From NCBI GenBank assembly GCA_023459875.1, contig JAEWRY010000028.1:1-64000 (forward strand): a DNA stretch of 64,000 nt, read 5' to 3'. Below are positions 166 through 16,871 of this stretch, one piece after another (position 1 is the stretch's first letter; the number at the start of each line of letters is the position of its first letter). Position numbers and translations under genes: made by a program. Under the pieces are notes generated by a model. It did no database searches. It saw only the letters and a list, made by a program, of their open reading frames with translations, and was not told the DNA's origin. Origin of the DNA: Bacillota bacterium (lineage in GTDB: Bacteria > Bacillota > Clostridia > Oscillospirales > Oscillospiraceae).

Positions 166-192
166 ATCGGAGTGGTCTGCTGCTTCCTTTTT

Positions 193-570
193 TAAAGAGA
201 GCTCCTTTTCCAGATACCGGCCGGCGGCGGGAGGAAGGCTCCGTCCGGCGCCAAGCAGGTTTCTCGCCGCCGCCAGGGTCCCGGGCACCGCCGGCTGGGA
301 CAGGGAATAGTTACGGCTCAGGGCGGCGGCGAGGCCCAGATAGCCCTCCGGGTCCTCGGGACGCAGGTCCCGCAGCTCCCGGTACAGACCCTCCGCCTCG
401 GTCCACCGCCTTGCCAGGAGAAAGGCGCGGCCCCGGGCGGACTTTTGTTCCCAGAGCAGATCGTCCTGGGGAAGGTATCCCCCCGCCGGAGCGCCGCAGC
501 GGGCGCATTCCAGGCGTCCGTTGCGGCGGCGCAGGACGGTGCTTCCGCAGGCTTGACAGGTGTAGGGCAT
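193..570 (-). CDS. Zn-ribbon (CxxC-x17-CxxC) N-terminus plus TPR-like helical protein, 125 aa (MPYTCQACGSTVLRRRNGRLECARCG...). NOT present in the supplied ORF track.
   Basis: Hand translation of the minus strand: ATG at 570 preceded by AAAGGAGGAAG (spacing 7), open to TAA at 193-195. Two CxxC pairs are seen directly. Sits immediately after the stop of the 600..1073 gene. Confidence 0.5.
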
Positions 571-599
571 AGAGCTTCCTCCTTTCTCCGGGAAAAAGT

Positions 600-1073
600 T
601 CAGGGACGGTGGGGGGCGCGGGGCGATTCGGGCTCCGTAAAGGGTCCGCGCCGGGTTTCGGCGGAATCGGGGCCTGATTTTTTGTCCGCAAAGGGGTTGG
701 TCCGGCAGTCAACGCGGGGTACGGGGCGCACCACGTGAAAGGCCGTCACCACCGCCAGAGCCATGGAAACAAGCAGGATTGCCGAGAGAAAAAGGGCGGT
801 GCGCACGGTGACGGCAAAGAGGGAAAGCCCCAGGCAGAGCAGTGCGGCAAAAAGACCGGCTCCCCAACCCACAGCCGCTGCGCTGAGGCCGCTTACCGCG
901 TCCCGGCGGGCGGCGGCGAAGAGGCAGACCGCAGAGGCGCCCAGTATAAAGAGATTGGAGGCTACCCACAGCAGACACTGGGCGGGGCCGGGAGCGCCGC
1001 CCAGCAGAAAAGCGAAAGTCAGATTCATGAGAATAAGAACAAGGGCGCAGAGGATGAATTTTACCGGCTTCAT
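600..1073 (-). CDS. Polytopic small membrane protein (about 4 TM), 157 aa.
   Basis: Internal ATG of ORF 600..1205 with AAAGGAGTG RBS (spacing 7) gives MKPVKFILCALVLILMNL... Four hydrophobic stretches. Begins 6 nt after the stop of the SPFH gene. Confidence 0.6.
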   Translation of the reverse strand: MKPVKFILCALVLILMNLTFAFLLGGAPGPAQCLLWVASNLFILGASAVCLFAAARRDAVSGLSAAAVGWGAGLFAALLCLGLSLFAVTVRTALFLSAILLVSMALAVVTAFHVVRPVPRVDCRTNPFADKKSGPDSAETRRGPFTEPESPRAPHRP

Positions 1074-1078
1074 GATTA

Positions 1079-2188
1079 TCACTCCTTTTTTGGTTCGCGT
1101 TTGGGCGGACAGGAAGGACCGGGGACCCGTGGAGGACCGCCCTTGGACGGTCCGGACGGACGGGTGGAATCGGAAGGCGGCTCCCAGTCGGAAGGACCTT
1201 CCCAATGGACGGGACTGCTCCGGGAAGAATATTCATAGGGAGGTTCGCTCCGGTCGGGGGGCGTGCTGTGATCTCCACCGCCGAAGAAGTCGCAGGCTTC
1301 CCGCTCCAGTTCCCGGGTCTGGGGGAGGAGGGAGCGGCTCATCTGCTGGCCGAAGCTGAACGCCATGGGAAAGGCGGCGATGCCCGCCGCCGCTCCGGCC
1401 GCCCCGCTGCGCGAGCTATTCAGGAGAGCCTCCGACACCACCCGGCGGGCCATGCTGCCGCCGTAGAGGGCGTTCAGCTCGTCGCGCATGTTTTCCAGTT
1501 CCGTCTTTTTGCGCATACGGCTCTCCCGCAACTCTTGCAGCAGTGAGATTTCCTCCGGGCGTGGTTTCAGGTCGGCCATGCGCAGATCGGAGAGAGCCAC
1601 CCCGTACCCGGCCAGGGCGGCGGCCAGATCGTTTCTTAAAAGAGCCGAAAGCTCTCCGGTGAGCAGGGAGAGCTCCGCCGCCTGCCTGCCCGCCAACGCG
1701 GCGGAGAGCCGTGACTGGGCGGTCTGGCGGATGACGCCGGAGAAATACTGCTCGAAGGTCTCGCTCTCCAGATTGTCCCAGCCGGACACCGTCTGGAGGA
1801 GCCGCCGGCCGTCGATGACGCGCAGGTAGAGCGACAGCTCGGCGCTCAGGTGGAAGAGATAGCCCCCGTCCATGGAGGAGAGCAGCTCGCCGGTGGAGGA
1901 CTGGACCAGGGACTCGGCATCCAGATTGACGAACCATACCTGGGCCTGCACCGGCAGCACCCCGCCCGTCATCATGGTCTGGAGCCGGCGGAAGAAGGGG
2001 CTTACGCCGGTGGTGAGGTTATAGCTTCCCGGCGGGTATTCTCCGCTCCAGGCGCCGTTCAGGAGAAAATAGGCCCGCCAGCCGGGCGGGACGAAGAGCC
2101 TGGTCCCGTCGGCAAAGGCGGTCACCGCGGCTCTGGAAACAAGCTTGCCCGCGCCAGGGGCGGGCTGAAGCACCGAAATGGGGATCAT
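1079..2188 (-). CDS. SPFH/band-7 (stomatin/flotillin-like) domain protein with a Pro/Ser-rich disordered C-terminal tail.
   Basis: ORF 1079..2218 trimmed to the ATG at 2188 (AGGAGG RBS, spacing 8). N-terminal domain resembles SPFH (Band_7_1, YqiK-like) proteins. C-terminal ~70 aa is low-complexity and P/S/E-rich. Confidence 0.65.
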   Translation of the reverse strand: MIPISVLQPAPGAGKLVSRAAVTAFADGTRLFVPPGWRAYFLLNGAWSGEYPPGSYNLTTGVSPFFRRLQTMMTGGVLPVQAQVWFVNLDAESLVQSSTGELLSSMDGGYLFHLSAELSLYLRVIDGRRLLQTVSGWDNLESETFEQYFSGVIRQTAQSRLSAALAGRQAAELSLLTGELSALLRNDLAAALAGYGVALSDLRMADLKPRPEEISLLQELRESRMRKKTELENMRDELNALYGGSMARRVVSEALLNSSRSGAAGAAAGIAAFPMAFSFGQQMSRSLLPQTRELEREACDFFGGGDHSTPPDRSEPPYEYSSRSSPVHWEGPSDWEPPSDSTRPSGPSKGGPPRVPGPSCPPKREPKKE

Positions 2189-2205
2189 TGTTTCGCGCCT
2201 CCTTT

Positions 2206-2250
2206 CTGATGATTTCATACTATCAAAAACCGTCTCTAGATTCTTCAGGG
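2206..2250 (-). promoter_or_regulatory. Promoter-motif copy C upstream of the SPFH/membrane/ZnR-TPR block.
   Basis: Minus strand reads CTGAAGA-atc-TAGAGA-cggtttttga-TAGTAT-gaa-ATCATCAG-aaaGGAGG. Overlaps the 3' end of the transglutaminase-like ORF. Confidence 0.5.
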
Positions 2251-2957
2251 TACCTGGGCGTGTGGTCCCTGGACATTTTCTCGGGAGTGAGGTTAAAGTA
2301 CCGGCGGCTGGAGAGGCCCATGAACCTTCGCAGCGGACCTGTCTGTCCCCCGTCCCAGGTCACGTCCACCATTCGCGGCTCCCCGCCGAGCTCCACCAGG
2401 TTCCAGGCGTGGCCCTCCCCTCCGGCGAAGCCCCTCACCACGGCGCAGGGGATGCCGCTCCGGCGGCAGAGCAGGGCGAAGGCCTTGCTGTAGCCCTCGC
2501 AGAGAGCCTCGCACTCCAACAGGGCGGCAGCCGCTGTGGCGGGATAGTAGCCGGCTCCGTCCCGGTAAGAGACATAGCCCGCCAGGGCGTCGTGCAAAAT
2601 GAGCTCGCGCTTCTCCGGGTTCGCTTCCCGCATGGCGAGCTTTGTGATGCGCTCCACCCGCCCCTCCAGCGCCCGGCCTACAGACGAGCGCCCGGACGGA
2701 GTAAAGAGGTAGTTGGGGATTAACCGGAAGGTGTTGGGGCCCTCCGCATGGCGGTAGCTGCACAGGTCGGCCCAGAAAAGCCCCGGGCAGTCGAAGCGCA
2801 GGGCCAGCATGGCGGCGTTCAGATCGCCGGCCCGCCCGGGGCCGCCGTCCGGGGGAAGGGGAATTTTTCCGCTCATGGAGAAAAGCCCGCCTCTGATGAG
2901 GCGGTAATAGAACTTGCCTCGAGGGGTGAGGCTGCCATAATAGAGACGCTCCAGCAT
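2223..2957 (-). CDS. Transglutaminase-like superfamily cysteine protease.
   Basis: Cys-His-Asp core visible: ...GIPCAVVRGFAGGEGHAWNLVEL...MVDVTWDG. AGGAGGA RBS, spacing 4. Confidence 0.7.
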   Translation of the reverse strand: MLERLYYGSLTPRGKFYYRLIRGGLFSMSGKIPLPPDGGPGRAGDLNAAMLALRFDCPGLFWADLCSYRHAEGPNTFRLIPNYLFTPSGRSSVGRALEGRVERITKLAMREANPEKRELILHDALAGYVSYRDGAGYYPATAAAALLECEALCEGYSKAFALLCRRSGIPCAVVRGFAGGEGHAWNLVELGGEPRMVDVTWDGGQTGPLRRFMGLSSRRYFNLTPEKMSRDHTPRYPEESRDGF

Positions 2958-2966
2958 AGCGTCCTC

Positions 2967-3695
2967 CTACTGCGTATCCCGGCGGAGGGTGAAGGTGCCC
3001 CGGCGGTGGCCCAGGGTCCACTCCCCGGCCCAGACCCGTTTTGACTTTTTCAGTTTCGGCAGGGCGCAGCGCCAGACGGAAGCCTCCTCCTGTCCTGGGC
3101 CGCACCAGGCCTTGATGACGCTTGTGTGGGGATTTGAGATGAGGGTGGTCCACGCGTTGTTCCGGCAGGCCCGGCTGTGGGCCAGCTGATCCGTCCCGCT
3201 CATGAAGACGCCCAGGTCTCCGGGGTGGGTGTGGGCCATGGAGGTAACCAGCCACGCGGGCCCATACTGGTCGCAGAAGGGATTGAGGGAGTGGGGATCG
3301 TCCCGATAGCGCAGTTGCTCCCGGTTGAGATCGGCAAGGCTCTCGGAGGCGCGGCTTGCCATGACCGAGGTGCGCTCGGGGCACTGGATACTCTGGAAGA
3401 AGCTCTGGACGTGATAATGATACTCCCCGTCCTCCAGCAGCAGCCCCAGGCCCCGCAGCCTCTGTTCGTCCCGGTTCATGGGGTGGATAAGGCCCCAGTG
3501 CAAAATGGCTGCGTACTCCTCCCAGCCTTGAGGTGTGAAGAGAATCACATGTTTACCCGATCCCTCCCCGAGACATTCCGGCTCCGCCCCCGGCCACCGA
3601 GTACGGATGAGGTCCATGAGGGCGGCGCCGCTATCAATGTGCTGGTAGAGGGGGGGAAGGGGGCCCCGCATGGGGAGACGTTTGTTCTTTTCCAT
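2967..3695 (-). CDS. JAB/MPN (JAMM)-like metallopeptidase, candidate deubiquitinase/Ubl-processing peptidase.
   Basis: Motif MAHTHPGDLGVFMSGTDQ is H-x-H-x8-S-x2-D, i.e. the JAMM Zn site with one extra residue in the spacer. AAGGAGGA RBS, spacing 6. Lies directly downstream of the E2-like gene. Confidence 0.55.
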   Translation of the reverse strand: MEKNKRLPMRGPLPPLYQHIDSGAALMDLIRTRWPGAEPECLGEGSGKHVILFTPQGWEEYAAILHWGLIHPMNRDEQRLRGLGLLLEDGEYHYHVQSFFQSIQCPERTSVMASRASESLADLNREQLRYRDDPHSLNPFCDQYGPAWLVTSMAHTHPGDLGVFMSGTDQLAHSRACRNNAWTTLISNPHTSVIKAWCGPGQEEASVWRCALPKLKKSKRVWAGEWTLGHRRGTFTLRRDTQ

Positions 3696-3707
3696 AGCCG
3701 GTCCTCC

Positions 3708-4295
3708 TTAATGAATCCGCCCGGGTACGCGCCCGGGAGCGCGTGCCGCCGCACGCATTCCGGTACTGCCGGGGCTTCTGGAAGAGCCCGCCTTGGGGAT
3801 AAGGGTGTAAATGAGGTGCGGCGGCAGCAGAGGCAGGGAGAAGCGGCGGCATACGGCGGGGTAGACCGCCTTGATTTTTTTGTTGGCCGCGTCATTGGGA
3901 TTTACGGCGGAGTCGTCCAGAATGCACTCCAAAAGCAGCTTGCGCAGCAGATCGGTGATGGAGGTATCGCTGTAAAAATTGCCGATACAGGCCTGGCCGC
4001 TCTCGAAAATGTTGGGGCTGAAGGGGCGGCGGCTCGGATCGGGGAAGGCGACCAGAGGCTTGCCGCCCAGAGGGAACCCGGTTGGGAGCCAAAACTCCAG
4101 GTACGCCCCCTTGGACATGCGCACCCCCGCGGGGTCCTCGGGGCTTCCTACTAGAATGGGGATGCCCGCCTCCACGGAGATATGGTCGCCGCTTATCATC
4201 TTGACGCGCAGCGCTCCGCCCGCGCGCCCGTCCAGAGCCAGTAAAGCGTCCGTCTGGCGCTTTTTCGCAGCGAGATTGGCTTCAAATTCCGTCAT
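3708..4295 (-). CDS. UBC-fold E2-like ubiquitin-conjugating enzyme homolog (BilB/bacterial-E2-like).
   Basis: Active-site signature FSPNIFESGQACIGNFY matches the UBC HPN-x(5-7)-G-x-IC-L pattern, with SPN in place of HPN and a catalytic Cys. Its ATG overlaps the E1 stop (ATGA). AAGGAG RBS, spacing 7. Confidence 0.6.
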   Translation of the reverse strand: MTEFEANLAAKKRQTDALLALDGRAGGALRVKMISGDHISVEAGIPILVGSPEDPAGVRMSKGAYLEFWLPTGFPLGGKPLVAFPDPSRRPFSPNIFESGQACIGNFYSDTSITDLLRKLLLECILDDSAVNPNDAANKKIKAVYPAVCRRFSLPLLPPHLIYTLIPKAGSSRSPGSTGMRAAARAPGRVPGRIH

Positions 4296-5521
4296 GATAA
4301 CCACTCCTTATCATCGCCCGAGTGCAGTTCGGACTCGTCGTTTGCGCAGCAGAAGCAGGTGAGGCCCCGTTCGTTCTCAGCGTAGAGGAAGTCCCCAACT
4401 CCGAAGCCCAGCCGGAAGAGGGAGAGGTTCAGAAGCTTGGGGTCTGATGATGTCGTGAGGAAGGCGCACAGCTCGGGCAGGGGCAGCTCCAGGCGTTCCA
4501 GCCTGGCGGGGGAGCCAGACGAAGCACAGGCGCGGCAGAGAAGGTTTTTTTCCACTACCCGGCGGGCGGGGGCCATCGGTTCGAGGGGAGCCCCGCAGGC
4601 ACGGCAATAATCCCGAAGCAGAAAGGGGGAGCCGGGCGGCAGATGGAGGCGTGTGGGACCCATTTTGCGCTCGATGCGCGAGAGCGCTTCGCCCGCTGTG
4701 AGAGAAAAGACCGAGGAGCCTTCCAGCGTCAGCAGCTTCACCGGGGGCGTGAGGGGGCAGGCCTTGCAGTCCCGGGTCTTGGTGAGGGGGGCGCTGCGAA
4801 ACTCCAGGGTCCGGCCGCTGAGCCAAAAGCGGCGGTTGAGGCACCAGCGCTCTCCGCGCAGGTCAGCCAGCAGCAGGTAAATTCCCGCCGTCACCGACGC
4901 CGTCCCCGCCAGCACGCTGGTCTGAACCTGAAGGGAGGAAGTATCCGTTCCGTAAGAAACCCCGCAGCGGCGGCGGTGTTCGGCGTCTTCACCCTCCAAC
5001 TCGCCCAGGTAACATTCAAGGCAGGAGTCCTCCCCGTCCAGCAGGGCGGCGGAGGAGAGCTCTTCCATGGTGCCCAGGAGAATAAGGCGGGGCCGCCGGC
5101 GGCCCGGCAGGAGCGGTATCTGCTTCCACAGGCGGTTTATCCAGAGCTTGGCGGCGTAGTTGTCCACGCCCACGAAGAGGTAGTCGAACCCCGCCAGGGC
5201 GGAGGGACCCAGGTCCTGCACCAGACCCCTGATGCCGGTGACCTCTCCGGAGGGCATCAGTTCCCGGAGCCTCCGGGCGGCTGCGGGGGCCTTATAGTCC
5301 CCCACGTCGGCGCCGGTGTAGAGGGCGGATTTGGCCAGGTTGCGGGCCTCCAGGCGGTCGGGGTCGATGAGGGTGAGGTGCTCCGCGCCCGACTGAACCA
5401 GCAGGGAGCACAGCAGGGAGCCAAGGGAGCCCGCCCCCACCGACAGAATGCGCAGGGCGCGCATCTCCTCCAGGGGCACTGAGAGCTTTGCGGGGTCGAG
5501 AATCATTTTTTGGCTCTTCAT
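4292..5521 (-). CDS. E1-like ThiF/MoeB-family adenylyltransferase with an extra Cys-rich (multi-CxxC) C-terminal domain.
   Basis: Rossmann GxGxxG: RILSVGAGSLGSLLCSLLVQSGAEHLTLIDPDRLEARNLAKSALY. C-terminal ~200 aa carries CLEC, CKAC, CRAC, CRAC and CFCC pairs. GAGGAGG RBS, spacing 7. Confidence 0.85.
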   Translation of the reverse strand: MKSQKMILDPAKLSVPLEEMRALRILSVGAGSLGSLLCSLLVQSGAEHLTLIDPDRLEARNLAKSALYTGADVGDYKAPAAARRLRELMPSGEVTGIRGLVQDLGPSALAGFDYLFVGVDNYAAKLWINRLWKQIPLLPGRRRPRLILLGTMEELSSAALLDGEDSCLECYLGELEGEDAEHRRRCGVSYGTDTSSLQVQTSVLAGTASVTAGIYLLLADLRGERWCLNRRFWLSGRTLEFRSAPLTKTRDCKACPLTPPVKLLTLEGSSVFSLTAGEALSRIERKMGPTRLHLPPGSPFLLRDYCRACGAPLEPMAPARRVVEKNLLCRACASSGSPARLERLELPLPELCAFLTTSSDPKLLNLSLFRLGFGVGDFLYAENERGLTCFCCANDESELHSGDDKEWLS

Positions 5522-5533
5522 AAAGCCGCCTCC

Positions 5534-5917
5534 TCAATGGATTTTCACATGGGGATGAAACCGGTACTGGCAGCGGGTGCAGAAGTACTCTCCCCCGCCA
5601 GCCCTGCGGATCACGCGGCGGTTTTGCGCGGTGTTGCGGCAGCCCAGAACCGGGCAGACGGGAAACCGCAGCTCGGGCGGCAGCGCGGCCCCGGAAACGG
5701 GCAGGCGGGTGGGTAAGGCGCGCGCGCTCGGGCAAGGGGAGGTGGGGACTGCGGTACTGCGGGTCACGGCCGGGGAAGCGTGTCCCGAAGCGGGATGGGG
5801 CGAGCGGGGCGGGTGGTCGGGGCGTCTTCCGCGCCCGAACCGTTTTCGCAGGAAACCCAGGAGCGCGGCGGCCGCCGTGCCCGCGCAGAAGACGCATATC
5901 AGCAGGTGCCACGCCAT
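5534..5917 (-). CDS. Small protein: N-terminal TM helix, Pro/Ser-rich linker, C-terminal zinc ribbon (CPVLGC...CTRC).
   Basis: Strong RBS AGAGGAGGAG, spacing 6. Hydrophobic N-terminus MAWHLLICVFCAGTAAAALLGFL and two CxxC pairs at the C-terminus. Sits between the Ubl candidate and the E1. Confidence 0.5.
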   Translation of the reverse strand: MAWHLLICVFCAGTAAAALLGFLRKRFGRGRRPDHPPRSPHPASGHASPAVTRSTAVPTSPCPSARALPTRLPVSGAALPPELRFPVCPVLGCRNTAQNRRVIRRAGGGEYFCTRCQYRFHPHVKIH

Positions 5918-5935
5918 GGAAGCTCCTCCTCTTTT

Positions 5936-6337
5936 TTAGCTGACCGCACCCGCGCCGGTGTCGTTGTCAATGAGCAGCCGGTCGCCCTTTTGTATGCCCA
6001 TGTCCTCCACGGTGACGTTCAGGGCGCTTTTTACCGACAGAGGCTTCTCCCCGCGCACCACGCAGCAGGTGAACTTCTCCTTGGCCCGATTCCCGGCGAG
6101 TTCCTCCTCGGTGATGAGACCCAGGTTGCGGAGAATCTGACCGAAGGTGTTTTCGGGGTAAACGTAGTAAGGCTCCTCCACCGCGCTGCCTTCCACCGAA
6201 AACTGCACGCTGATGTGGATGGCGTCCGGGTCCTCCCGGGAAAGGGACGCGCTATCTTCCCCGGCGGCTGTGTAGGCCTTCGTATCCTCCGGGGTCATGA
6301 TGCTGGAAAGCTCGTCGTTGTAATCACTGGTTTTCAT
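5936..6337 (-). CDS. Candidate ubiquitin-like (beta-grasp) protein with an acidic N-terminal extension; 133 aa.
   Basis: First gene after promoter copy B. AAGGAGG RBS, spacing 8. A ~90-aa C-terminal region alternates hydrophobic strands (HISVQFSV..., ...IQKGDRLLI) and ends ...DNDTGAGAVS, Gly-containing but not GG-terminal. Position directly upstream of E1/E2/JAB. The fold is inferred, not demonstrated. Confidence 0.4.
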   Translation of the reverse strand: MKTSDYNDELSSIMTPEDTKAYTAAGEDSASLSREDPDAIHISVQFSVEGSAVEEPYYVYPENTFGQILRNLGLITEEELAGNRAKEKFTCCVVRGEKPLSVKSALNVTVEDMGIQKGDRLLIDNDTGAGAVS

Positions 6338-6372
6338 CGCAATAACCTCCTTTTTTTGTGGGGTGTTGTTCC

Positions 6373-6418
6373 CCTGATGATGAGAGTATACCGCCGCGCA
6401 TCTCTAAGTTCTTCAAGG
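6373..6418 (-). promoter_or_regulatory. Promoter-motif copy B upstream of the Ubl/ZnR/E1/E2/JAB/TGase block.
   Basis: Minus strand reads TTGAAGA-act-TAGAGA-tgcgcggcgg-TATACT-ctc-ATCATCAGG. Lies in the 95-nt gap between the phosphatase stop and the Ubl RBS. Confidence 0.55.
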
Positions 6419-6432
6419 CCCCGCGGCGGTGC

Positions 6433-7086
6433 TCACGCGTAAAACTCCGCCATGTCCTCCAGACGCAGGCAGGCCAGGCGGCGGCCGGGAAGCTCCAGAT
6501 GTCCGCAGCCGCAGTCGATGCCCACGGCCCCCGCGCCCCGCCAGACGCGCCAGTGACCGTCCAAAAGCCGCGGGGAGTAGAGCCAGGTGGGCGTGTGGCC
6601 GAAGATAACCGCCTCCTGTCCCGTAAGGCGGCAGCCAGCGTCCGCCTCAAAGCGTCCCCAGAGCCGCAGATAGGGGTCATCCGAGGGCATCCCGTGCACC
6701 AGATGAAACGTTTTATCCCCCACCCTCAGATGAAGCGCATCGGGCAGCGCCCCAAGATGCGCGAGCAGCTCTTTCCTCTTTCCGGGCGGCAGGGTCAGAA
6801 ACCGGCACAGGGTCTGCTCGCCGCCGTTATTGGCCCACTTGGTGAGGGCCGTGGCGGGGTAGCCAGGCATCAGCGCCTCCAGCATCATCTGCTCGTGGTT
6901 TCCCCGGAGCAGAACAGCGCCGGACAGGGCAAGCACGTCCTGCAAAAGCTCGATGGATTCCGGCCCACGGTCGATCACGTCGCCGAGGATATAAAGCCGG
7001 TCGCGGGTCCCAAAGCTTACCGCCTCCAAAACGGCGTGAAACCGGTCCCGCTCTCCGTGGGGGTCCGAAAGGCAATAGGTGCTCAT
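6433..7086 (-). CDS. PPP-family (PP2A/ApaH-like) Ser/Thr metallophosphatase.
   Basis: Calcineurin-like motifs DPHGE...GDVIDRG...GNHE. GGGAAGGA RBS, spacing 5. Confidence 0.85.
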   Translation of the reverse strand: MSTYCLSDPHGERDRFHAVLEAVSFGTRDRLYILGDVIDRGPESIELLQDVLALSGAVLLRGNHEQMMLEALMPGYPATALTKWANNGGEQTLCRFLTLPPGKRKELLAHLGALPDALHLRVGDKTFHLVHGMPSDDPYLRLWGRFEADAGCRLTGQEAVIFGHTPTWLYSPRLLDGHWRVWRGAGAVGIDCGCGHLELPGRRLACLRLEDMAEFYA

Positions 7087-7108
7087 AACAGTCCTTCCCG
7101 CGCCCGGC

Positions 7109-8278: not shown

Positions 8279-8310
8279 AGCCGCACCTCCTATGGGGATT
8301 CCGGCGAATA

Positions 8311-9108: not shown

Positions 9109-9148
9109 GACGATCGTCTCCTTCTATTCATTTTGCGCGGTTGTTCTT

Positions 9149-9192
9149 CCTGACGATAAGAATACGCCGCGGTATCTCTAAAATCTTCAAGG
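9149..9192 (-). promoter_or_regulatory. Promoter-motif copy A upstream of the 265-aa/AAA+/phosphatase block.
   Basis: Minus strand reads TTGAAGA-ttt-TAGAGA-taccgcggcg-TATTCT-t-ATCGTCAGG, ~40 nt before the RBS. Confidence 0.55.
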
Positions 9193-9231
9193 CAAAAAAA
9201 TCCGCGGTACGATGAAAATCGTACCGCGGAT
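9193..9231 (-). terminator. Intrinsic terminator after the 511-aa gene.
   Basis: Perfect 14-bp stem ATCCGCGGTACGAT / ATCGTACCGCGGAT with a GAAA loop, followed on the minus strand by TTTTTTT. Confidence 0.75.
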
Positions 9232-9247
9232 GAGATTTAATATAAAC

Positions 9248-10783
9248 TTATAGAAAGTCCCGGTGCCAGGCGCCGTCGGAGAGCTTCAGGCAGGGGAAGG
9301 AGATGCCCTCGTCGGCGATGCGCTCCACGAAGGCCTCCAAAAAGCAACCTTTTCCCTCCCGGCCCGGGCAGTCCAGCAGGGCAGACATCAATGCGTCGTC
9401 AGCGTTGTGTGGATCGAGGGGGGAGAAGCCCGCGCGGATGAGCATTCCGTCCAGCCGGGCAGCCGAGAGGCCCTCTCCCTGGGGGGAGGGATCGGCCAGG
9501 AAGACCAGCATCCTCACAAGAACGGGCCGGGAAATGGGGAGAAAACCGCTCACCAGCTGCTGGATTTTGTCCCGGCTGAAGCCCCGGGCAGAAAAACCCA
9601 GCGCGCCGTCCCCCGACGAACCATCTTCACCGCCACGTCCGGGTTTTCCTCGGCCTTGCGGGGCCTCAAAGACGCCGCACAGGAAGAATTCCAGCGCATC
9701 CTCTCGGATGCCGCTGTAGGTGAGCCGGAGCAGGTCGATATGTGCCGGCGTGAGGGCGGCTGTCCTGTCCCGGTACTGGGAAAGAGCCCCCAGGGTGAGA
9801 TACTCCGTCGGTTGAGGGCCGCGGAAAAGGGCAAGCCCCTCCGACAGGGCTTCCGGCGGGGCTTCGTCCGGCTTTCCAAAGACCCAAAGGGGGGCAAGAA
9901 GGTCGGAGATAAGACTCCGGTCGTAATCAGCGGGCCGGTTCAGCAGTCCGTCCCGCCGGGAAAGAGCCTTGTCCCGCCGGGAGAGAAAACCGGAAATCTG
10001 CCGGTCGACCTCTCGGAGAAGGGCGCGGCACAGGTAGATCCTCGCCCGCTCCCTGGCACCCGAGAAGTAGAGCGCCGCTTCTTTGCTCTCCAGGTACGCC
10101 CGAAAGACCTCCGGAGAGCCCCGGAGGCGGCTCACCGTGTCGTGGGCGTCACTGGTGAGGTCCAGGGTGATCTCCGGTGTGCCGGGCTGTCTGCTTTCGG
10201 TTACGAAACGGCGCAGCTGCCAGAGATATTCGATCATGCCGCCGGAAACGCCGGGCCTGTATCCGTCGCAGACCGGCTTCAGCTCCGACTGCCAGCGGAA
10301 GAGGTCCATGCCGTTATTGAGGGCGAAGATGACGCTGGCATCCTCCACCGAGCGGGCGTAGAGCCGGTCGTACCCCGTAAAGCGCAGCAGCTCGTTGGCT
10401 CCCTTCTCGTCCCGCCCCAGAGCGAAGGCCAGGGCGATGACCGCCCGCCGCTCCGAGGCGCAGTCCAGCCCCGCCTGATCGGCGAGGACCCCGCGTTCCA
10501 AGCTGCGCTCCAGGTAGCGGGCCGCCCGCTCCCGGCCACTCCCCTGGGAGAGCGTGTCCCCCACGTAGGCGGATACCATTTCGGCGTACCGCTCGTCCCG
10601 GGTCCAGTTGCACAGGAGCTTGGTTAGCTTCTTGCGGCGGCGGGAGTTCATATTCTCGGGCTTGGTGAGGTTCAGGGGACGGCAGAGATCGGGATCCAGG
10701 CTGTACCAGTACTCCTGCTTGTCGAAGAAACGGCTTATGTAGCGGTCGGCGAAGCCGGCGCCGGAAAGTTGGGGCTCGGGCAT
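9248..10783 (-). CDS. Hypothetical protein, 511 aa, no recognisable domain.
   Basis: ORF 9248..11077 trimmed to the ATG at 10783 with AAGGAGG RBS (spacing 6), 13 nt after the stop of the giant kinase-NACHT gene. Followed by an intrinsic terminator. Confidence 0.6.
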   Translation of the reverse strand: MPEPQLSGAGFADRYISRFFDKQEYWYSLDPDLCRPLNLTKPENMNSRRRKKLTKLLCNWTRDERYAEMVSAYVGDTLSQGSGRERAARYLERSLERGVLADQAGLDCASERRAVIALAFALGRDEKGANELLRFTGYDRLYARSVEDASVIFALNNGMDLFRWQSELKPVCDGYRPGVSGGMIEYLWQLRRFVTESRQPGTPEITLDLTSDAHDTVSRLRGSPEVFRAYLESKEAALYFSGARERARIYLCRALLREVDRQISGFLSRRDKALSRRDGLLNRPADYDRSLISDLLAPLWVFGKPDEAPPEALSEGLALFRGPQPTEYLTLGALSQYRDRTAALTPAHIDLLRLTYSGIREDALEFFLCGVFEAPQGRGKPGRGGEDGSSGDGALGFSARGFSRDKIQQLVSGFLPISRPVLVRMLVFLADPSPQGEGLSAARLDGMLIRAGFSPLDPHNADDALMSALLDCPGREGKGCFLEAFVERIADEGISFPCLKLSDGAWHRDFL

Positions 10784-10796
10784 AAAAGGCCTCCTT

Positions 10797-13700
10797 TCAG
10801 TCTCCGAACACGGCGCCGCAGCGGCGGAAAAATTCCAGGTCCCACGGGGTGGGCTCGGGCATGATGCCGCGCATGGAAGCGCCCGACACCTCCAGGCGCT
10901 CCATTTGCGCCAGGGGCGAAGCGTCCACAAAGACCGCGGCGGAAGGGGATGGGGAGCCCAGTCGCCGGAGCGCGAAGGCCTTTTTGGAACGTTTCTCCGT
11001 CTTGCGATAGTACTGCGCGTGTTCGGAAGCAGTTGTTTGTGGGTCGGAGAGATCGATGGGGGAATCGAGCAGCACAATGGTGCGGTTGTTTATCTGCCGC
11101 AGGTCGGCGACGGCCATGGCGTCGTACCGCTCCAGCACCTGTCCGTCAGACAGGCTAACCTCCAGGGTGAGCCAGGCGTCGAAGAAGGAGAGCAAAACGG
11201 TATCTCCGCTCAGAAGGAAGACTCGAAGGCTGCTCCCCCTTCTGTTTCTTGGGCATTTGAGCTGTCCTATTTTGAGAAGGCGCGGATCAGTAGCAACCCG
11301 GGCGGCAAGGAGGGGGGCGGTGTCCACGGGAACGGCTGTGCCGGCGCTCAGGGCAATGCGGCAGAGACCCGCTCTGGCGGGAAGTTCCTCTCCGCTTGTC
11401 AGTCTTCTAGCGAAATTATAAATAAAGGAGCAGGCGGTGTCTCCCAGAAAACCCAGATCGGCCTCGGCCAGGAGGAGCTTCTTTTTGCTGCCCTTTTCGG
11501 AGCTTCCCGCGTCGGGGAACGGATCGAACCGGCACAGGGGAATTCCCGGCTCCCCCGGAGTTCCCCGCGTCACCACGGCGGTATCCGGGTCGGGAAGGCT
11601 TAGGGTGAGCAGAACGCCGTCCCCGGTGAGAACGGCGGGCCAGCCGCCGTAGAGCCTCCGGTTGACCTGCGCAGCGTCTTGCCCCGCGAGATCGGTGAGA
11701 TATTCCATGCCGGGAAAGTCCACGCCAAAGATCAGGTTGTTTTCCAGGCGCCGTCCAGGGCCGATCCAGTGCTTCAGCGTGCCCAGCACCTTACCGACGG
11801 CGGTCGGCGCGTCGATGGCGGCGGACTCTTCCAAACACCAGATTCTTCCGTCCGCCGTCACGGGGCGCGCCTGACCTACCTCATCCAGAAACAACATCTG
11901 CACCCGGTGGCTGCGGAAGACGATCTGTGAAGTGAGAAGTCCGCTTTTTGTGCTGTATTCTTCCAGACCGTCCGCGCTGAGCATGGCAATGCGGTCGGCG
12001 CTGCGGGAATAGACCGCGCCCAGATAACCGCTTGCCTTCCTGCCTAACTGCCGGGGCTGCCCCCCGGCGGCATTTCCGCCCGCCGTCAGCTCACGAAAGC
12101 TGGAGCCCAGACGCTGGAGGACATAGCCGGGGCGGGAGGTCTTACCGCTTTTGAACTCCTCCAGTTGGGTGTAGTGGGAATGGTCTTTCGTTAATTCCAG
12201 ACGGGCGGAGAGGCTGCCGTCCTCCTCCTGAACGAGATAATACTGAAGAATCCTCATCTGTCTATGCTCACCCTCAAGCTGGACTCCCAGCCGTCCCTCC
12301 GGCTGGGGGACGGCACAGGTGAGCCGGAACCCTTGGGCGGTCTCTCCGTCGGGCGGACAAAACTCCAGGAGGCCTTCCCCCGTGCCCGCGTTTATGATGC
12401 ACACCGTGTTGTCCGAGAGGATCACCGCCAGCCATCCCTGCTCAGGCAGGAGAATGAAATGTACCAGCGCCGCGTCGCCGTGGGTTTCGGGCGAGACCGC
12501 CAGGCTGAACACAAGGCCCTCCTCCCACAAATCGAGACAGAAAAGGGTTTTCGTGTACGCCAGATAGAGAAAACGGCCGGAGGGCCCGTATTCCATTCTG
12601 CGATAACCGGAGTCGCCGGGCAGATCAAGTTCCCGCAAGTCGTCCAGCATCAGGAAGGCTCCGTCCAGTCTGGCACCGGATAGGGGCGCCGTGCGCAGCC
12701 GCGCCCGGGAGAGGTCCAGGCGGGACAGGTCTTCGCCCGCCAGGGTGCCGCGGCGGAGCAGCAGGGCCTCCGTCAGGTTGGCCGCCGCCGTGGCGAAACT
12801 GCCCCCCATGGCTCCCGCGTATTCCACGGCGTTAAAAAGGGTGAGTCGGGTGTGCTCCTTCCTATCCCCCAGGGTAAAACGCAGGGTTAAATTCTGCGCG
12901 GACAATACGGGCAGTAATGGAAAGACTGTTGAATCCGGAATTTCAAACGGAAGGTCGTCGGTCTCCAGGAGTTCGTCCAGATCATCCGCCGTCAGAGGCC
13001 TCTTACGATTAAGCGACATGTTGATGATCCAGATGAGATTGGAAAAGTTGATCCAATTCTCGCTTAAAAGTTCCAGGGCCTCGTTGCCGTAGCCAGCGAG
13101 GCTTTGACTGTTGATGGGATCGAAGAACCCACGAAGGCTCTCCAGCGCCCCGCGCAGAGACGCGCAGTCCTCCCCACACAGCTCTCCCAGCCGCAGGCAG
13201 ACCGCCCGGCTCAGGTGATAGCGGCCCAGTTCGCTTTTAAGGCTCTCCGGGCCGGAGTGGCGCAGGAGGGATTGGAGCAGCCCGTCGGCGCAGAAAATTT
13301 CCCGCATGCTGTCATGGGCCAAGGAATACCACCGGTCCTCCAGGCGCAAAAGGCCGGTGCCGAGCAGCATGTTCAGAACCCGGCCGTTGCGGAGGGAGGT
13401 CAGGCGCAGGTCGCCGTAAGGGTCGGCACTTTTTTGCCATTGAGGGTCGAGCAGCTGCTGTAATTCTTCCTTACTGTCGAAATATCCGAAGTCCAGGAGC
13501 ATTTTCTCCGCCGGGCGGAGCAGGCCGTCGGGGCTGTCCGCCAGCAGCAGGGATTCGACAGTTCTTACCCGGGCGATGTCTTTGTCGAAGGAGGCCAGCG
13601 AGCGCTCCTCCTCCCTGTCCTCTCCAAAGGCGGGATAGCCGTATTCCCGCAGCTCCATGGCGCTCTCCGGGAGGGTCATACGGTGGAAAAAGAAGTTGAG

Positions 13701-15797
13701 GATGCTTTCGATCCCGTTGCGGCTGATGCCGAACCAGAATTCGTCGGTGCACAGCTGGCAGGCCAGGTAGGGCAAAAATTCCCGCACCAGCAGGCAGTAC
13801 GCGCCGAAGCTGCCGCCGCTGCGGTTATCCCAGAGCTTGGAGAGCACATATTCCCGGTAGTTGAGCATGATCTGGGAAGCCGTGCGGGCGGAGGGAAGGA
13901 ACCGGAAGCGCGGGTCGCGCAGAAGGGAGCGGTCGATGACTGCCCGTTCGCTCAGGGCGTACATCTTGAGAAGCATGGGAGATTCCAGCACCTGGCGCAG
14001 GCTGTCGCCCTCGGGAACCGGCGGTAAGCCCGAAGCGGAAAGGTAGCCGTCGATCTGGCCTGTGTCCAGGGCCGCGAGCTCGGCAAGGCCAAGCCCCAAG
14101 CCCATAAAGTTCGTCTGCCGCATGTCCGACTGGGCCGAGAGCACGACCCTGATGCCGGGCAGAGCCATGAGTCGCGAAAGCTCCGATACCAGCGCTCCGA
14201 AGTCCTCCTCTCCCGCCGCCTCGTTGAGGCCGTCCGCCAGGAGGAGAAAGCCCGGAGCGTCCCCGGCAGTCTCCCGGAAGCAGTTTAGAAAGGGCAGCTC
14301 GGCGTCATCCTCGTCCAGACGCCCGGCGTAGCGGGAGAGGATGTAGTCCCGGACAAAGTTAGCCTTATCCCCTGCGTCCCTAAAAGCACGAAGAGGCACA
14401 TAGAGGGGTACCGGAGCGTCGGGCCGGTAACATTCCGTCAGAGTCACGGCGGCGTGGAGCAGGGCGAAAGTCTTGCCCCGCATGCCGGAGCCCTGGAGAA
14501 ACAGATGGCCCCGGGTACTGTCAAGCAGGGCAAAAAGGTTCTCTTCCGCCGGGGAGGAGGCGCTCTCCTCCGGAACCAGCCGGCAGCGGGCAAGAAGGGC
14601 TTCCTGCGGCGTTTCCGGCAGCGCCCGGGCAAAGCGCCGGGCGCCTGTAAAAAGCACCTCCCGGCAGACGCCCCGGTTTTCGATCACCCGGCGCAGACGG
14701 TCGAGACCCCGGGTGAGGGCGGCGAGGGTGAGGCGGCTCTCCGCCGGGCGCTCCAGCGCCGGACGGAGAAGTTCTTCTTTGAGAAGGCTCCGGGCCGACT
14801 CGGGGATAGCGTCGAGAGCGGGGGAGGAGAGCTCCAGCTCGTCGCAGTCGTAAGGCTGGCCGGTGACCATTTCAAAGAGGATGGCGGCAATGGAATAGAC
14901 GTCGGTCTCGGGCCGCAGGAGCCGCAGGGCCTCTCCGGGGTCGGGGTGGTTCACCTGCCGTCCAAGCTCGGGCGCGGCGTAGTGAAGGGTGGAGGTGAGC
15001 CTGGGCAGGATGGCGAGGCGGAGGCGGCGGTCCTCTTCGCCCTTTCCCAGCGGGAAGGCGCTGCCCAGGTCCAGCATCCGGAAGACCCGCCGTCCCTCGT
15101 CTCCGTCCAGCTCCAGGCGGGTGCAGTAGATGTTGTCGGGTTTTATATCCAAATGAAGATAGGGGGCGGGGCTGCCGTCCCGTCCCAGATGGCCGTGGAG
15201 CTGGGCGGCGGCTTCGGCGATCCGCCGGGTCCAGGCGAGGGCGGTCAGCGCGCCCTGCTCCCGGTCGTCGTGGAGCTTCCGGCGCCGCAGCAGGTCGGAG
15301 AGGGGCTCGCCCCCCGTGGTGTCGCACAGGAGAAAGGCACCGTACCTGGGCGCGCCAGCTCCCAGCCACTCCGGGCCGTCGCAGCCCTCGCGGATGAGAG
15401 AGGCATAATCCTCCAGCTCGGTGAGGGCGGCGTAGTAGAAATAATCGTTATTGCTCCTTTCCCCGTACAGGGCGCACAGCTCCCCGCACACCGCCGCCTC
15501 CCGCCGGAAGAGCAAGGCCGACTGAAGAAACCGGCGGCGCTCCTCCGCAGAGGCATCCTCCAGCACCATGACGCCCTCCGGAGTGACGCGCAGCTTTTCC
15601 CGCAGAGAAGCGGGGCAGAAGAGTTTGAGGGCGAACACCCGCGCCTCTCCCTGCCGCGCCGCCTTGAAACAAAGAGAGCTGCCTCCTGAAGACAGCCGTT
15701 CCAGCAGCCGGAAGCCTCCCAGAGCGAAAAAAGAATCCATATCCAAGACAAGCCGCCTCCTTCCGACAGAGTATTTAAATATTCTAAATAATAACAT
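10797..15797 (-). CDS. Giant STAND protein: eukaryotic-like Ser/Thr kinase, then NACHT NTPase, helical/pentapeptide repeats and a WD40-like beta-propeller. The true start is probably the internal ATG at 15740.
   Basis: Kinase: G-loop LSSGGSSLCFKA, VFALKL, catalytic HLDIKPDN (~15130-15160), DLGSA, YAAPE. NACHT: Walker A GSGMRGKT (~14466-14500) and Walker B FLLLADGLNE. Pentapeptide repeats: DLSRLDLSRARLRTAPLSGARLDGAF. C-terminus: WD40-like repeats. The first ATG at 15797 lies inside promoter copy D. ATG 15740 has a GGAAGGAGG RBS upstream, spacing ~15. Confidence 0.85.
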   Translation of the reverse strand: MLLFRIFKYSVGRRRLVLDMDSFFALGGFRLLERLSSGGSSLCFKAARQGEARVFALKLFCPASLREKLRVTPEGVMVLEDASAEERRRFLQSALLFRREAAVCGELCALYGERSNNDYFYYAALTELEDYASLIREGCDGPEWLGAGAPRYGAFLLCDTTGGEPLSDLLRRRKLHDDREQGALTALAWTRRIAEAAAQLHGHLGRDGSPAPYLHLDIKPDNIYCTRLELDGDEGRRVFRMLDLGSAFPLGKGEEDRRLRLAILPRLTSTLHYAAPELGRQVNHPDPGEALRLLRPETDVYSIAAILFEMVTGQPYDCDELELSSPALDAIPESARSLLKEELLRPALERPAESRLTLAALTRGLDRLRRVIENRGVCREVLFTGARRFARALPETPQEALLARCRLVPEESASSPAEENLFALLDSTRGHLFLQGSGMRGKTFALLHAAVTLTECYRPDAPVPLYVPLRAFRDAGDKANFVRDYILSRYAGRLDEDDAELPFLNCFRETAGDAPGFLLLADGLNEAAGEEDFGALVSELSRLMALPGIRVVLSAQSDMRQTNFMGLGLGLAELAALDTGQIDGYLSASGLPPVPEGDSLRQVLESPMLLKMYALSERAVIDRSLLRDPRFRFLPSARTASQIMLNYREYVLSKLWDNRSGGSFGAYCLLVREFLPYLACQLCTDEFWFGISRNGIESILNFFFHRMTLPESAMELREYGYPAFGEDREEERSLASFDKDIARVRTVESLLLADSPDGLLRPAEKMLLDFGYFDSKEELQQLLDPQWQKSADPYGDLRLTSLRNGRVLNMLLGTGLLRLEDRWYSLAHDSMREIFCADGLLQSLLRHSGPESLKSELGRYHLSRAVCLRLGELCGEDCASLRGALESLRGFFDPINSQSLAGYGNEALELLSENWINFSNLIWIINMSLNRKRPLTADDLDELLETDDLPFEIPDSTVFPLLPVLSAQNLTLRFTLGDRKEHTRLTLFNAVEYAGAMGGSFATAAANLTEALLLRRGTLAGEDLSRLDLSRARLRTAPLSGARLDGAFLMLDDLRELDLPGDSGYRRMEYGPSGRFLYLAYTKTLFCLDLWEEGLVFSLAVSPETHGDAALVHFILLPEQGWLAVILSDNTVCIINAGTGEGLLEFCPPDGETAQGFRLTCAVPQPEGRLGVQLEGEHRQMRILQYYLVQEEDGSLSARLELTKDHSHYTQLEEFKSGKTSRPGYVLQRLGSSFRELTAGGNAAGGQPRQLGRKASGYLGAVYSRSADRIAMLSADGLEEYSTKSGLLTSQIVFRSHRVQMLFLDEVGQARPVTADGRIWCLEESAAIDAPTAVGKVLGTLKHWIGPGRRLENNLIFGVDFPGMEYLTDLAGQDAAQVNRRLYGGWPAVLTGDGVLLTLSLPDPDTAVVTRGTPGEPGIPLCRFDPFPDAGSSEKGSKKKLLLAEADLGFLGDTACSFIYNFARRLTSGEELPARAGLCRIALSAGTAVPVDTAPLLAARVATDPRLLKIGQLKCPRNRRGSSLRVFLLSGDTVLLSFFDAWLTLEVSLSDGQVLERYDAMAVADLRQINNRTIVLLDSPIDLSDPQTTASEHAQYYRKTEKRSKKAFALRRLGSPSPSAAVFVDASPLAQMERLEVSGASMRGIMPEPTPWDLEFFRRCGAVFGD

Positions 15798-15819
15798 AGC
15801 TCTTCTCTAAATTCCACAG
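15788..15819 (-). promoter_or_regulatory. Promoter-motif copy D (divergent, weaker match) upstream of the kinase-NACHT gene.
   Basis: Minus strand reads GTGGAA-tt-TAGAGA-agagctatgt-TATTAT. Same TAGAGA-N10-TAnnnT core as copies A-C, with the upstream TTGAAGA-N3 half shifted by one base. Confidence 0.35.
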
Positions 15820-16773: not shown

Positions 16774-16871
16774 TGGGGCAGGCGGCCGCTCACAACAGAA
16801 GCAAATATATCAATTGAAAAGTCGTTCGCGTTTTTATAACTCATATCAGGCGAATCGCCGGCTTCAGCGAA

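Follow-up and report, generated by a model that had tools for sequence, protein, structure and literature searches.

A probable two-layer conflict island built around an apparently undescribed ubiquitin-like tagging system of Clostridia

Genes and signals at the locus

The left end of a 64,000-nucleotide stretch of an Oscillospiraceae genome (assembly GCA_023459875.1, contig JAEWRY010000028.1, positions 1 to 64,000; this whole 64-kb stretch is called the window below) carries a series of co-directional genes that includes a kinase-bearing STAND gene, a phosphatase gene, an AAA+ ATPase gene and a set of genes for ubiquitin-like (Ubl) conjugation. With a probability of roughly 0.6, the locus represents a composite conflict island of ~19 kb in two layers, a conserved Ubl system and a clade-specific add-on. 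The first layer, which spans window positions 6418 to 1 and a further ~3.5 kb leftward, encodes, judging by sequence, a complete thioester-type Ubl conjugation pathway, two peptidases whose catalytic residues are intact, several membrane proteins, and a HerA-clade ATPase with a WHH nuclease. The second would consist of the STAND gene and its neighbor unk512, with their own promoter and terminator, and of a block holding unk265, the AAA+ gene and the phosphatase gene, all of them specific to a small clade. The left part is a conserved and apparently undescribed bacterial ubiquitin-like tagging system, present at ~100 loci in gut and rumen Clostridia.

The same DNA lies on a 482.6-kb metagenome scaffold, ENA ERZ28598037 (locus L001; L numbers denote the loci compared here), on which the gene calls agree and which reaches ~6 kb past the left end of the window. 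Every real gene in 1..15797 is on the minus strand, 13 of them complete and a 14th leaving at the left end after its start, in keeping with the about 15 co-directional genes counted in the preliminary description of this DNA. The boundaries given there, 193-15797, have to be moved at both ends: on the left the conserved system runs ~3.5 kb beyond the window, and on the right the STAND gene most likely begins at TTG 15746 and not at ATG 15797, given that the -10 box of the first promoter-like motif falls downstream of the ATG, that a ribosome-binding site is suitably placed before the TTG and that the public gene call (1649 aa) agrees. The many plus-strand open reading frames in the same interval were rejected as high-GC artefacts, as were the 'f5' antisense families that simple open-reading-frame calling produced in high-GC loci. 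The island genes have a GC content at third codon positions (GC3) of 0.73-0.81, in a region of ~0.60-0.66 GC, and use AGGAGG-type ribosome-binding sites. In order of transcription they encode the STAND protein, unk512, unk265, the AAA+ ATPase, the phosphatase, the Ubl, a transmembrane (TM)/Zn-ribbon protein, E1, E2, JAB, a transglutaminase-like peptidase, an SPFH protein, a 157-aa membrane protein and a Zn-ribbon/TM protein; beyond the left edge of the window, L001 continues with a HerA-like ATPase, a WHH nuclease and then LemA and DUF2207 genes. The conserved module comprises the following genes.

5936..6337, minus: ubiquitin-like (beta-grasp) protein, 133 aa, from family profile matches
5534..5917, minus: small membrane protein, 127 aa, with a C-terminal CxxC...CxxC Zn ribbon, from its sequence and a weak zinc-finger match
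4292..5521, minus: E1-like adenylating enzyme, 409 aa; Pfam ThiF, 95 bits; PDB matches to NAE1/UBA3, MoeB and Cap2
3708..4295, minus: E2-like (UBC-fold) protein, 195 aa, with an SPN...C motif
2967..3695, minus: JAB/JAMM metallopeptidase, 242 aa; Glu60, His155, His157, Ser166 and Asp169 invariant
2223..2957, minus: transglutaminase-like cysteine peptidase, 244 aa; Pfam Transglut_core, 39 bits
1079..2188, minus: SPFH/Band-7 protein, 369 aa, with a Pro-rich tail; Band_7_1 47.3 bits and Band_7 38.8 bits, both above threshold
600..1073, minus: polytopic membrane protein, 157 aa; in other loci its place is taken by the 'TM13' (DUF6159-like) family
1..570, minus: Zn-ribbon, helical and TM protein, 232 aa, of which the first 190 codons lie in the window; the gene runs off its end
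L001 14952-19033, outside the window: HerA-like ATPase, 872 aa, then WHH/Colicin-DNase nuclease, 242 aa, the two genes overlapping by 8 nt

Whereas the ThiF, transglutaminase and Band_7 domains are recognized directly by Pfam, as is the AAA+ domain discussed below, the Ubl, E2 and JAB proteins of the window have no Pfam match of their own, and their folds were assigned by searching family alignments of related loci against PDB sequences; most of the earlier domain identifications stand. The Ubl profile matches the UBL domain of Ddi1 (E 1.3e-3), Dsk2, BilA (8u38, E 0.03) and SUMO, and the homologue at L012 has weak UN_NPL4 and Rad60-SLD matches. The C-termini of the family end in ...GVA. Five loci (L030, L038, L017, L048, L049) have two to four Ubl genes or tandem Ubl repeats fused directly after ...GVA, which implies poly-Ubl precursors that need proteolytic maturation. 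The E1 has a single ThiF domain (aa 17-252) and a C-terminal Zn-ribbon domain; Cys186 is invariant between two CxxC pairs, and two further CxxC pairs are present. To our knowledge it is the simplest E1 seen with a full Ubl-E2-JAB set. In the E2, Asn95 and Cys103 are invariant (16 sequences), and the profile gives 106 PDB matches at E<=1, of which the best 60, the ones listed, are all UBC E2 enzymes (best E 6e-4). The JAB profile retrieves only Rpn11/PSMD14 JAMM enzymes (E 0.004); the L012 homologue has a weak Prok-JAB match, and a word-indexed protein search with the JAB protein returned only itself.

The HerA-like ATPase and the WHH nuclease, likely the effector pair, lie a short way past the window's edge and were missed in the preliminary description. 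In the PDB the HerA profile retrieves the Sulfolobus protein (4d2i, 5.6e-12) and several solved anti-phage HerA complexes, and the family passes the Pfam DUF87 threshold (27.2 vs 23.2), with a ~360-aa N-terminal region of unassigned fold. The 242-aa nuclease has WHH and Colicin-DNase Pfam matches, and the HerA stop and WHH start overlap or abut across loci. The Zn-ribbon/TM protein p232 contains XXXX, from a run of N in the scaffold (L001 ~15500), so that the translation of its C-terminus is unreliable.

Upstream of the module lie five genes.

10797..15746, minus: kinase-NACHT-like STAND protein, 1649 aa; TTG start at 15746, ribosome-binding site GGAAGGAGG 9 nt upstream
9248..10786, minus: unk512, all-alpha, sharing a transcription unit with the STAND gene, whose stop precedes it by 10 nt
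8311..9108, minus: unk265, with an acidic C-terminal tail
7109..8278, minus: ATPase module of the Lon-like AAA+ type, 389 aa, lacking a protease domain; Pfam AAA, 36 bits
6433..7086, minus: PPP-family (lambda-phosphatase/ApaH-like) metallophosphoesterase, 217 aa; Pfam Metallophos, 48 bits; DPHG, GDVIDRG and GNHE motifs

The STAND protein had been read as a kinase-NACHT-WD40 protein, and the three parts of that reading fare differently. The kinase is secure (aa 157-317, Pfam Pkinase 34.1 bits vs a threshold of 31.7, with HLDIKPDN, DLG and APE motifs intact). The NACHT part is supported indirectly: there is no direct Pfam NACHT match on the protein, and the assignment comes from a P-loop (Walker A GSGMRGKT at aa 419, Walker B-type LLLADGLNE) and from homology of aa 16-597 to a Pkinase+NACHT protein at L020 (E 1.7e-16), itself a NACHT match at 35.0 against a Pfam threshold of 26.7; likewise, aa 370-726 are homologous to a NACHT-like+WD40 protein at L039 (E 2.7e-13). 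Pentapeptide repeats occupy aa ~975-1045 (NCBIfam match at aa 990-1040, and PDB pentapeptide matches). The WD40 repeats find no match in Pfam, NCBIfam or the PDB; the C-terminal ~600 aa are beta-rich, a single-sequence AlphaFold2 (AF2) model of the last 609 residues reaches a predicted local distance difference test (pLDDT) score of 34, and the architectural relatives at L020 and L039 do carry WD40 repeats after the pentapeptide stretch.

Unk512 has no Pfam, NCBIfam or PADLOC match and its AF2 single-sequence model is unusable (pLDDT 36); it is 86% identical in L002, and a distant homologue in L020 adjoins that locus's kinase-NACHT homologue. Unk265 is likewise without a family match in these three collections and is 59% identical in L002. 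The AAA+ protein matches positions 290-549 of TIGR00763 lon (69 bits), and a word-indexed search of 5.8 billion clusters returned 7 relatives, one of them close; a distant relative, P0003, was set aside, its context being an unrelated relaxase/restriction-modification one. The phosphatase had been called 'PP2A-type', a loose label for what is a metallophosphatase of the PPP/lambda-phosphatase-like Metallophos kind. Between L001 and L002, the E1, AAA+, unk512, phosphatase and Ubl proteins are 84-89% identical and unk265 59%, and the C-terminal two-thirds of the STAND protein (aa 574-1649) are 62% identical, as would be expected of a fast-evolving receptor under diversifying pressure.

The signals that punctuate this series are four copies of one promoter-like motif and a single clear terminator, both correctly described before.

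15788..15818, minus: motif copy 1, TAGAGA (15809-15804), N10, TATTAT (15793-15788), upstream of the STAND gene
9159..9192, minus: motif copy 2, CCTTGAAGAttTTAGAGA-N10-TATTCT, upstream of unk265; motif family D10
6385..6418, minus: motif copy 3, CCTTGAAGAacTTAGAGA-N10-TATACT, upstream of the Ubl gene
2217..2250, minus: motif copy 4, CCCTGAAGAatCTAGAGA-N10-TAGTAT, overlapping the 3' end of the transglutaminase gene, upstream of the SPFH gene
9193..9231, minus: intrinsic terminator between unk512 and unk265, ending the STAND-unk512 unit; 14-bp stem with 8 G-C pairs, loop of 4, T7 tail

The full motif, CCTTGAAGA-N2-TTAGAGA-N10-TAnnnT, stands at 9192-9159 and again at 6418-6385, while 2250-2217 and ~15818-15788 hold close variants, the last (copy 1) having its upstream half-repeat less well preserved than copies 2-4. 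The expression TAGAGA-N10-TAnn[ACT]T, composed after the copies had been seen, has exactly 4 matches in 128 kb (both strands of the window), at 15809, 9180, 6406 and 2238, all on the minus strand and just upstream of the STAND, unk265, Ubl and SPFH genes, respectively; a stricter 19-mer with <=3 mismatches gives 3 matches against 0.10 expected. The motif is retained in the orthologous loci L002 and L005, copy 3 is found in L002, L003 and L005, and L006 has a similar element ahead of its Ubl gene; the motif was not found in relatives more distant than the clade of the window. Given that 20 nt separate the TTGAAG box from the -10-like box, unlike sigma-70 spacing, the element is not called a proven promoter, and its upstream half may be a direct-repeat site for a regulator. 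A sigma-70 scan also reports TAGAGA-17-TAGAAT at 15809..15781. The terminator is the strongest minus-strand match in the island, and the same hairpin is preserved in L002. From the positions of the motif copies and the terminator, four transcription units are likely: STAND-unk512 with its terminator; unk265-AAA+-phosphatase; Ubl to transglutaminase-like; and SPFH to WHH. Since all of them carry the same motif, they are probably switched on together, and the four copies argue for co-regulation of all four units within the clade.

Conservation of the module and turnover of its neighbors

An exhaustive HMMER search with the E1 delimited a subfamily of 400-440-aa E1s, with 25 representatives at E<1e-30 and 28-38% identity. 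From an alignment of its core members, 29 loci in GTDB genomes, one IMG/VR contig and 80 metagenome contigs, mostly from human gut and rumen, were retrieved and scanned by tblastn and by family hidden Markov models built in this analysis; at a cut-off of 90% E1 identity, 103 loci make up 45 lineages, and the presence of each gene was counted among the lineages with enough sequence. According to their record labels, the 29 GTDB loci are all from Clostridia-type Firmicutes (Lachnospiraceae, Oscillospiraceae, Anaerovoracaceae, Erysipelotrichaceae and others). L012 belongs to strain DFI.6.37, which is labelled a strain rather than a metagenome-assembled genome and is apparently a cultured isolate. 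Searches of PLSDB (72,556 plasmids) and of INPHARED phages gave no homologue of the core E1.

In all loci the genes keep one order and one strand: Ubl, TM/Zn-ribbon, E1, E2, JAB, transglutaminase-like, SPFH, membrane protein, Zn-ribbon/TM, HerA, WHH. In 35 of 36 lineages the E1 operon is immediately preceded by the Ubl gene, in 39 of 41 the TM/Zn-ribbon gene stands between Ubl and E1, and E2 and JAB are present in 37/38 and 31/35, respectively. The transglutaminase-like gene follows in 23 of 31 lineages, the SPFH gene, directly after it, in 20 of 30, and the Zn-ribbon/TM gene in 19 of 28; HerA and WHH occur together in 11 of 26, both of them in the same 37 loci. Conservation is nested, with Ubl, TM/Zn-ribbon, E1, E2 and JAB as a near-invariant core, the transglutaminase-like, SPFH and membrane-protein genes added in about two-thirds of lineages, and HerA and WHH in ~40%. 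Six loci without SPFH, HerA and WHH (L016, L022, L023, L029, L034, L041) have other, unrelated genes downstream of JAB (in L029 a 244-aa protein, a 520-aa protein and a kinase), which suggests that such lineages have alternative partner modules.

The window's version has very few close relatives. Its order from STAND to Ubl is shared by a bioreactor contig (L002/L003), where the AAA+ protein is 87% identical, and its order from AAA+ to E2 by a 3.5-kb Joint Genome Institute (JGI) contig (L005, E1 84% identical); an alignment restricted to this clade retrieved nothing from metagenome or viral contigs, the clade's relatives being L002, L003, L005 and L006. The phosphatase occurs only here (L002, L003, L005), as does unk265; unk512 recurs outside the clade at one distant locus, L020; the Lon-like AAA+ family is found in 5 of 45 lineages, in part of them ahead of Ubl and in the rest behind WHH; and the STAND gene of the window is not itself conserved across lineages. 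The preliminary description had proposed neighborhood conservation across genomes as a check, with scattering of the genes counting against a single island. For part of the island the outcome goes against it: the phosphatase, unk265, unk512 and AAA+ genes are not inherited with the module across lineages. The conflict-system-like island is supported for the Ubl genes, the two peptidases, the SPFH gene and the Zn-ribbon genes, which dozens of lineages inherit together and in strict order; the comparison gives no such support to the integration of the STAND, phosphatase and AAA+ genes into it.

What does recur upstream of Ubl is a position with changing occupants. Among the ~24 lineages with >=7 kb of upstream sequence, ~10-11 have a STAND, kinase or TIR protein there, of at least seven non-orthologous kinds. 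They are as follows.

L020 (Erysipelotrichaceae metagenome-assembled genome): kinase, NACHT, pentapeptide repeats and WD40
L016, L023: kinase, STAND and TPR
L031, L057, L059, L079, L088, L089, and also L035 and L092: one or two NACHT genes
L022: two other STAND proteins
L021, L078, L101: NB-ARC-like protein
L038, 1606-6096: kinase, TIR and propeller in one protein of 1497 aa, an unusual kinase-TIR fusion with a beta-propeller-like C-terminus
L039: NACHT-like and WD40
L041: a further relative

Within the largest lineage (E1 >=90% identical), the upstream neighbors alternate between type IV secretion system (T4SS) genes, NACHT pairs, an NB-ARC-like gene and AAA+. Because these neighbors are swapped among near-identical modules, the module evidently persists without them; given the ~10-11 lineages in which a STAND, kinase or TIR protein is found upstream, functional coupling is nevertheless still possible. 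The pattern fits plug-in sensors and, equally well, a hotspot of self-contained STAND defense genes.

The wider surroundings of the module are often those of mobile DNA. T4SS coupling-protein genes (Pfam T4SS-DNA_transf, 121 bits) flank it on one or both sides in 13 of 45 lineages, so that conjugative elements are often its carriers. In many loci (L007 20119-21277; L015, L031, L035) WHH is followed by a ~200-aa ClpP-like protease, a ~260-aa protein ('f14') and a second VirD4-type coupling protein, and the upstream VirD4 is paired with a ~345-aa TPR/RNPP-like protein. A 'second small E1' that had emerged from clustering proved to be the ClpP-like protease, a clustering artefact.

The island of the window itself is bordered by a flavin-reductase/rubredoxin gene and by LemA, with inositol, ABC-transporter and MoaA genes further right, and no tRNA or att-like boundary was found at the island. 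The flavin reductase-rubredoxin fusion gene and the 17-bp-stem terminator that follows it (16869-16905) occupy 16111-16905 on the plus strand and mark the right-hand boundary. Beyond them, 17756-19640 on the minus strand is a two-gene block with a GC content of 0.39-0.41, against ~0.6 for the contig, in which a 319-aa protein has a weak Mrr_cat restriction-endonuclease match (E 0.0037) and its 303-aa partner a C-terminal CxxC...CxxC; the pair looks like a recent foreign insert and is possibly another defense pair.

Two layers or one system

The nested conservation of the Ubl module and the turnover of everything upstream of it are best accommodated by the two-layer island proposed above, in which the genes of the second layer are most likely optional sensors or regulators, or independent neighbors in a defense hotspot, and not obligate parts. 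Should the module work as its domains suggest, the E1 would adenylate the C-terminus of the Ubl (family end ...GVA), which would pass from Cys186 of E1 to Cys103 of E2 and on to a target, conjugation perhaps taking place at a membrane platform formed by SPFH and the Zn-ribbon TM proteins. The target may be a protein of the invader, as in Bil, or an effector component of the system itself, as Cap2 acts on CD-NTases, and maturation or removal of the Ubl may fall to JAB, the transglutaminase-like peptidase, or both. HerA-WHH could serve as a DNA-degrading effector, as the HerA-nuclease and HerA-Sir2 defense complexes suggest by analogy. In the clade of the window, the shared promoter element would turn on the kinase-NACHT receptor, the phosphatase and the Lon-like unfoldase along with the module, and a phospho-switch might plausibly act on the module.

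Several considerations weigh against this interpretation or limit it. The defense role is drawn from domain content and context, and PADLOC has no model for the module. The matches behind the E2, JAB and Ubl fold assignments have modest E-values (6e-4 to 4e-3). Over half of the lineages lack HerA-WHH, which therefore cannot be the universal effector. In the window and the L001 flanks no mobility gene is in view, and the island sits amid housekeeping genes. Finally, a truly integrated system would account just as well for the promoter motif common to the units and for the STAND slot that recurs across lineages.

That last possibility, one integrated system, would have the kinase-NACHT protein sense an invader. 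The Ubl cascade would be switched on by phosphorylation, which the PPP phosphatase would reset, and by the Lon-like AAA+ protein, and would then act with SPFH and the effectors. It is unlikely, if the best of the alternatives. In its favor are the promoter motif, common to all four units and found nowhere else in the window, and the fact that order, motifs and terminator are preserved in L002 at ~85% protein identity; the kinase and phosphatase catalytic motifs are intact, and the AAA+ family recurs beside the module. A STAND, kinase or TIR gene, mostly co-directional, is found upstream of Ubl in ~40% of lineages, including L020 with its kinase-NACHT and unk512 homologues, but more than half of the lineages with adequate flanks are without STAND or kinase, the STAND genes that do occur are non-orthologous, sometimes on the opposite strand (L020, L039) and swapped among near-identical modules, and the phosphatase has never been seen outside the clade. 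A strong terminator, moreover, separates STAND-unk512 from the rest, and STAND proteins with N-terminal enzymatic domains are usually self-contained systems, as the Avs and bNACHT families illustrate.

The frequent company of T4SS genes could point to a different role, in which the Ubl module would serve conjugative elements, through establishment, exclusion, control of transfer or HerA-WHH DNA processing, and has no part in phage defense. This is somewhat less probable again. The coupling genes beside the module in 13 of 45 lineages come with the recurrent TPR/RNPP-like and ClpP-like genes, and the single 'viral' contig with the module also carries VirD4. Yet the window's copy and several others have no T4SS gene nearby, and the 72,556 plasmids yielded no homologue. 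The neighbors in the variable slot (NACHT, TIR, kinase-STAND) are typical defense genes, and conjugative elements commonly carry defense systems as cargo.

Least credible is delivery of a toxin in competition. WHH would then be a polymorphic-toxin-like effector, which the HerA/FtsK-type ATPase would pump out across a membrane complex built from SPFH and the Zn-ribbon TM proteins, and the Ubl would act like YukD/EsaB of Firmicute type VII secretion: WHH and Colicin-DNase are classic toxin modules, the module has three or four membrane proteins and a member of the pumping-ATPase superfamily, and PMC1779556 treats the Ubl YukD and FtsK-HerA ATPases jointly in the context of ESAT-6 secretion, but no immunity gene consistently follows WHH (none in L001), no WXG100, LXG or signal-peptide domain was found, YukD-type Ubls act without E1, E2 and JAB whereas a full catalytic cascade is conserved here, and the ATPase is closest to HerA proper and anti-phage HerA rather than to FtsK or EssC.

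A bolder proposal can be offered tentatively, and is itself rather doubtful in its full form: that the module defines an unrecognized family of immune systems of the ubiquitination-like kind, often found on the conjugative elements of Clostridia from gut and rumen, in which a minimal single-domain E1, an E2 and a JAMM peptidase attach a GVA-ended Ubl at an SPFH platform to license a HerA-WHH DNase, with interchangeable STAND/kinase/TIR receptors upstream and, in this clade, a kinase/phosphatase switch and a Lon-like AAA+ protein. The module brings Ubl conjugation together with an SPFH scaffold at the membrane and, in many lineages, with a HerA-nuclease pair. Abundant as it is in human-gut and rumen Clostridia, and carried on conjugative elements, it may influence the dynamics of phages and plasmids in the microbiome. 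The changing occupants of the STAND/kinase/TIR slot offer a natural experiment on a possible coupling of NLR-like receptors to ubiquitin-like tagging that already existed in bacteria.

Comparison with known systems

Three bacterial ubiquitination-like pathways have been worked out, Cap2/Cap3 of the cyclic-oligonucleotide-based anti-phage signaling system (CBASS), Bil and Bub, and they have changed views on the origin of eukaryotic ubiquitin signaling. PADLOC-DB v2 returns generic matches for the island (the kinase to PD-T4-6 and mad6, the E1 to CBASS E1-E2, HerA to HerA, DndH and mad8) and none for Ubl, E2, JAB, TGase (the transglutaminase-like peptidase), SPFH or WHH. Full-text literature searches gave nothing relevant on the gene combination, although a description outside the searched literature is possible.

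Individual parts of the island resemble parts of other conflict systems. The vWA-MoxR 'FtsH ternary systems' (Kaur et al. 2020, PMC7159879) likewise join an NTPase-centered conflict system to a full Ubl conjugation set that includes JAB and E1, but they have vWA, MoxR and FtsH-like parts, a RING-type E3, a Ubl-E2 fusion, EAD adaptors and caspase-like effectors, none of which was found here. Like NACHT/Avs-type receptors, the STAND protein combines an enzymatic N-terminus, here a kinase, with a P-loop NTPase, whose Walker B is of the DGLNE type, and a long, fast-evolving, repeat-bearing C-terminus; it differs in having no direct NACHT or WD40 Pfam match, in being paired with unk512 and in sharing its promoter motif with the Ubl system. 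In the HerA complexes (DUF4297-HerA, Sir2-HerA and the archaeal HerA-NurA) there is similarly a HerA-clade ATPase, whose gene is here translationally coupled to that of a nuclease, a putative partner; the partner in this case is a WHH (HNH/EndoVII) protein, the ATPase is of ~850 aa, and the pair lies inside a Ubl operon and is absent from ~60% of lineages.

Among the ubiquitination-like systems proper, Bub/6E (DUF6527) resembles the module in having Ubl-E1-E2-peptidase operons on mobile elements. Its E1 and E2, however, lack the catalytic cysteines (forming Tyr and Ser oxyesters), its proteins are fused, and it always includes the DUF6527 protease BubE; given the invariant cysteines here and the absence of a DUF6527 match in Pfam scans of the island and of L012, the module is not a Bub/6E system. 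Type II CBASS Cap2/Cap3, along with the Pycsar/MBL E2-E1-JAB modules, has a homologous E1 adenylation domain and a JAB protein as antagonist or processor, and both the PADLOC CBASS E1-E2 models (57 bits, on the E1 part) and Cap2 in the PDB match the E1. Cap2, in contrast, is an E2-E1 fusion without a dedicated Ubl and has a CD-NTase as its substrate; since E1 and E2 are separate genes here, accompanied by a Ubl, and no cyclase was found in the island, the module does not belong with Cap2/Cap3 either.

Bil (bacterial ISG15-like, Type I/II; the '6d' operon type of Iyer, Burroughs and Aravind 2006, PMC1779556; bioRxiv 10.1101/2024.11.21.623953) is the nearest known system. Like Bil, the module has separate Ubl, E2, JAB and E1 genes, a catalytic Cys in E2, no E3 and a mobile or defense-like context, and three of the Bil features are found in it, namely a stand-alone Ubl (BilA), an E2 with catalytic Cys (BilB) and a JAB/JAMM protein (BilC). 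The fourth, the IAD-AAD-CYS architecture of the BilD E1 (bioRxiv 10.1101/2024.11.21.623953), is replaced by a single ThiF domain (aa 17-252) and a Zn ribbon, and the module is therefore not a member of Bil. It further differs in its gene order, with a TM/Zn-ribbon gene always inserted, in up to six additional conserved genes (TGase, SPFH, two TM proteins, HerA and WHH) and in a Ubl family that ends in GVA and not in Gly. The module would represent a fourth architecture beside CBASS Cap2/Cap3, Bil and Bub.

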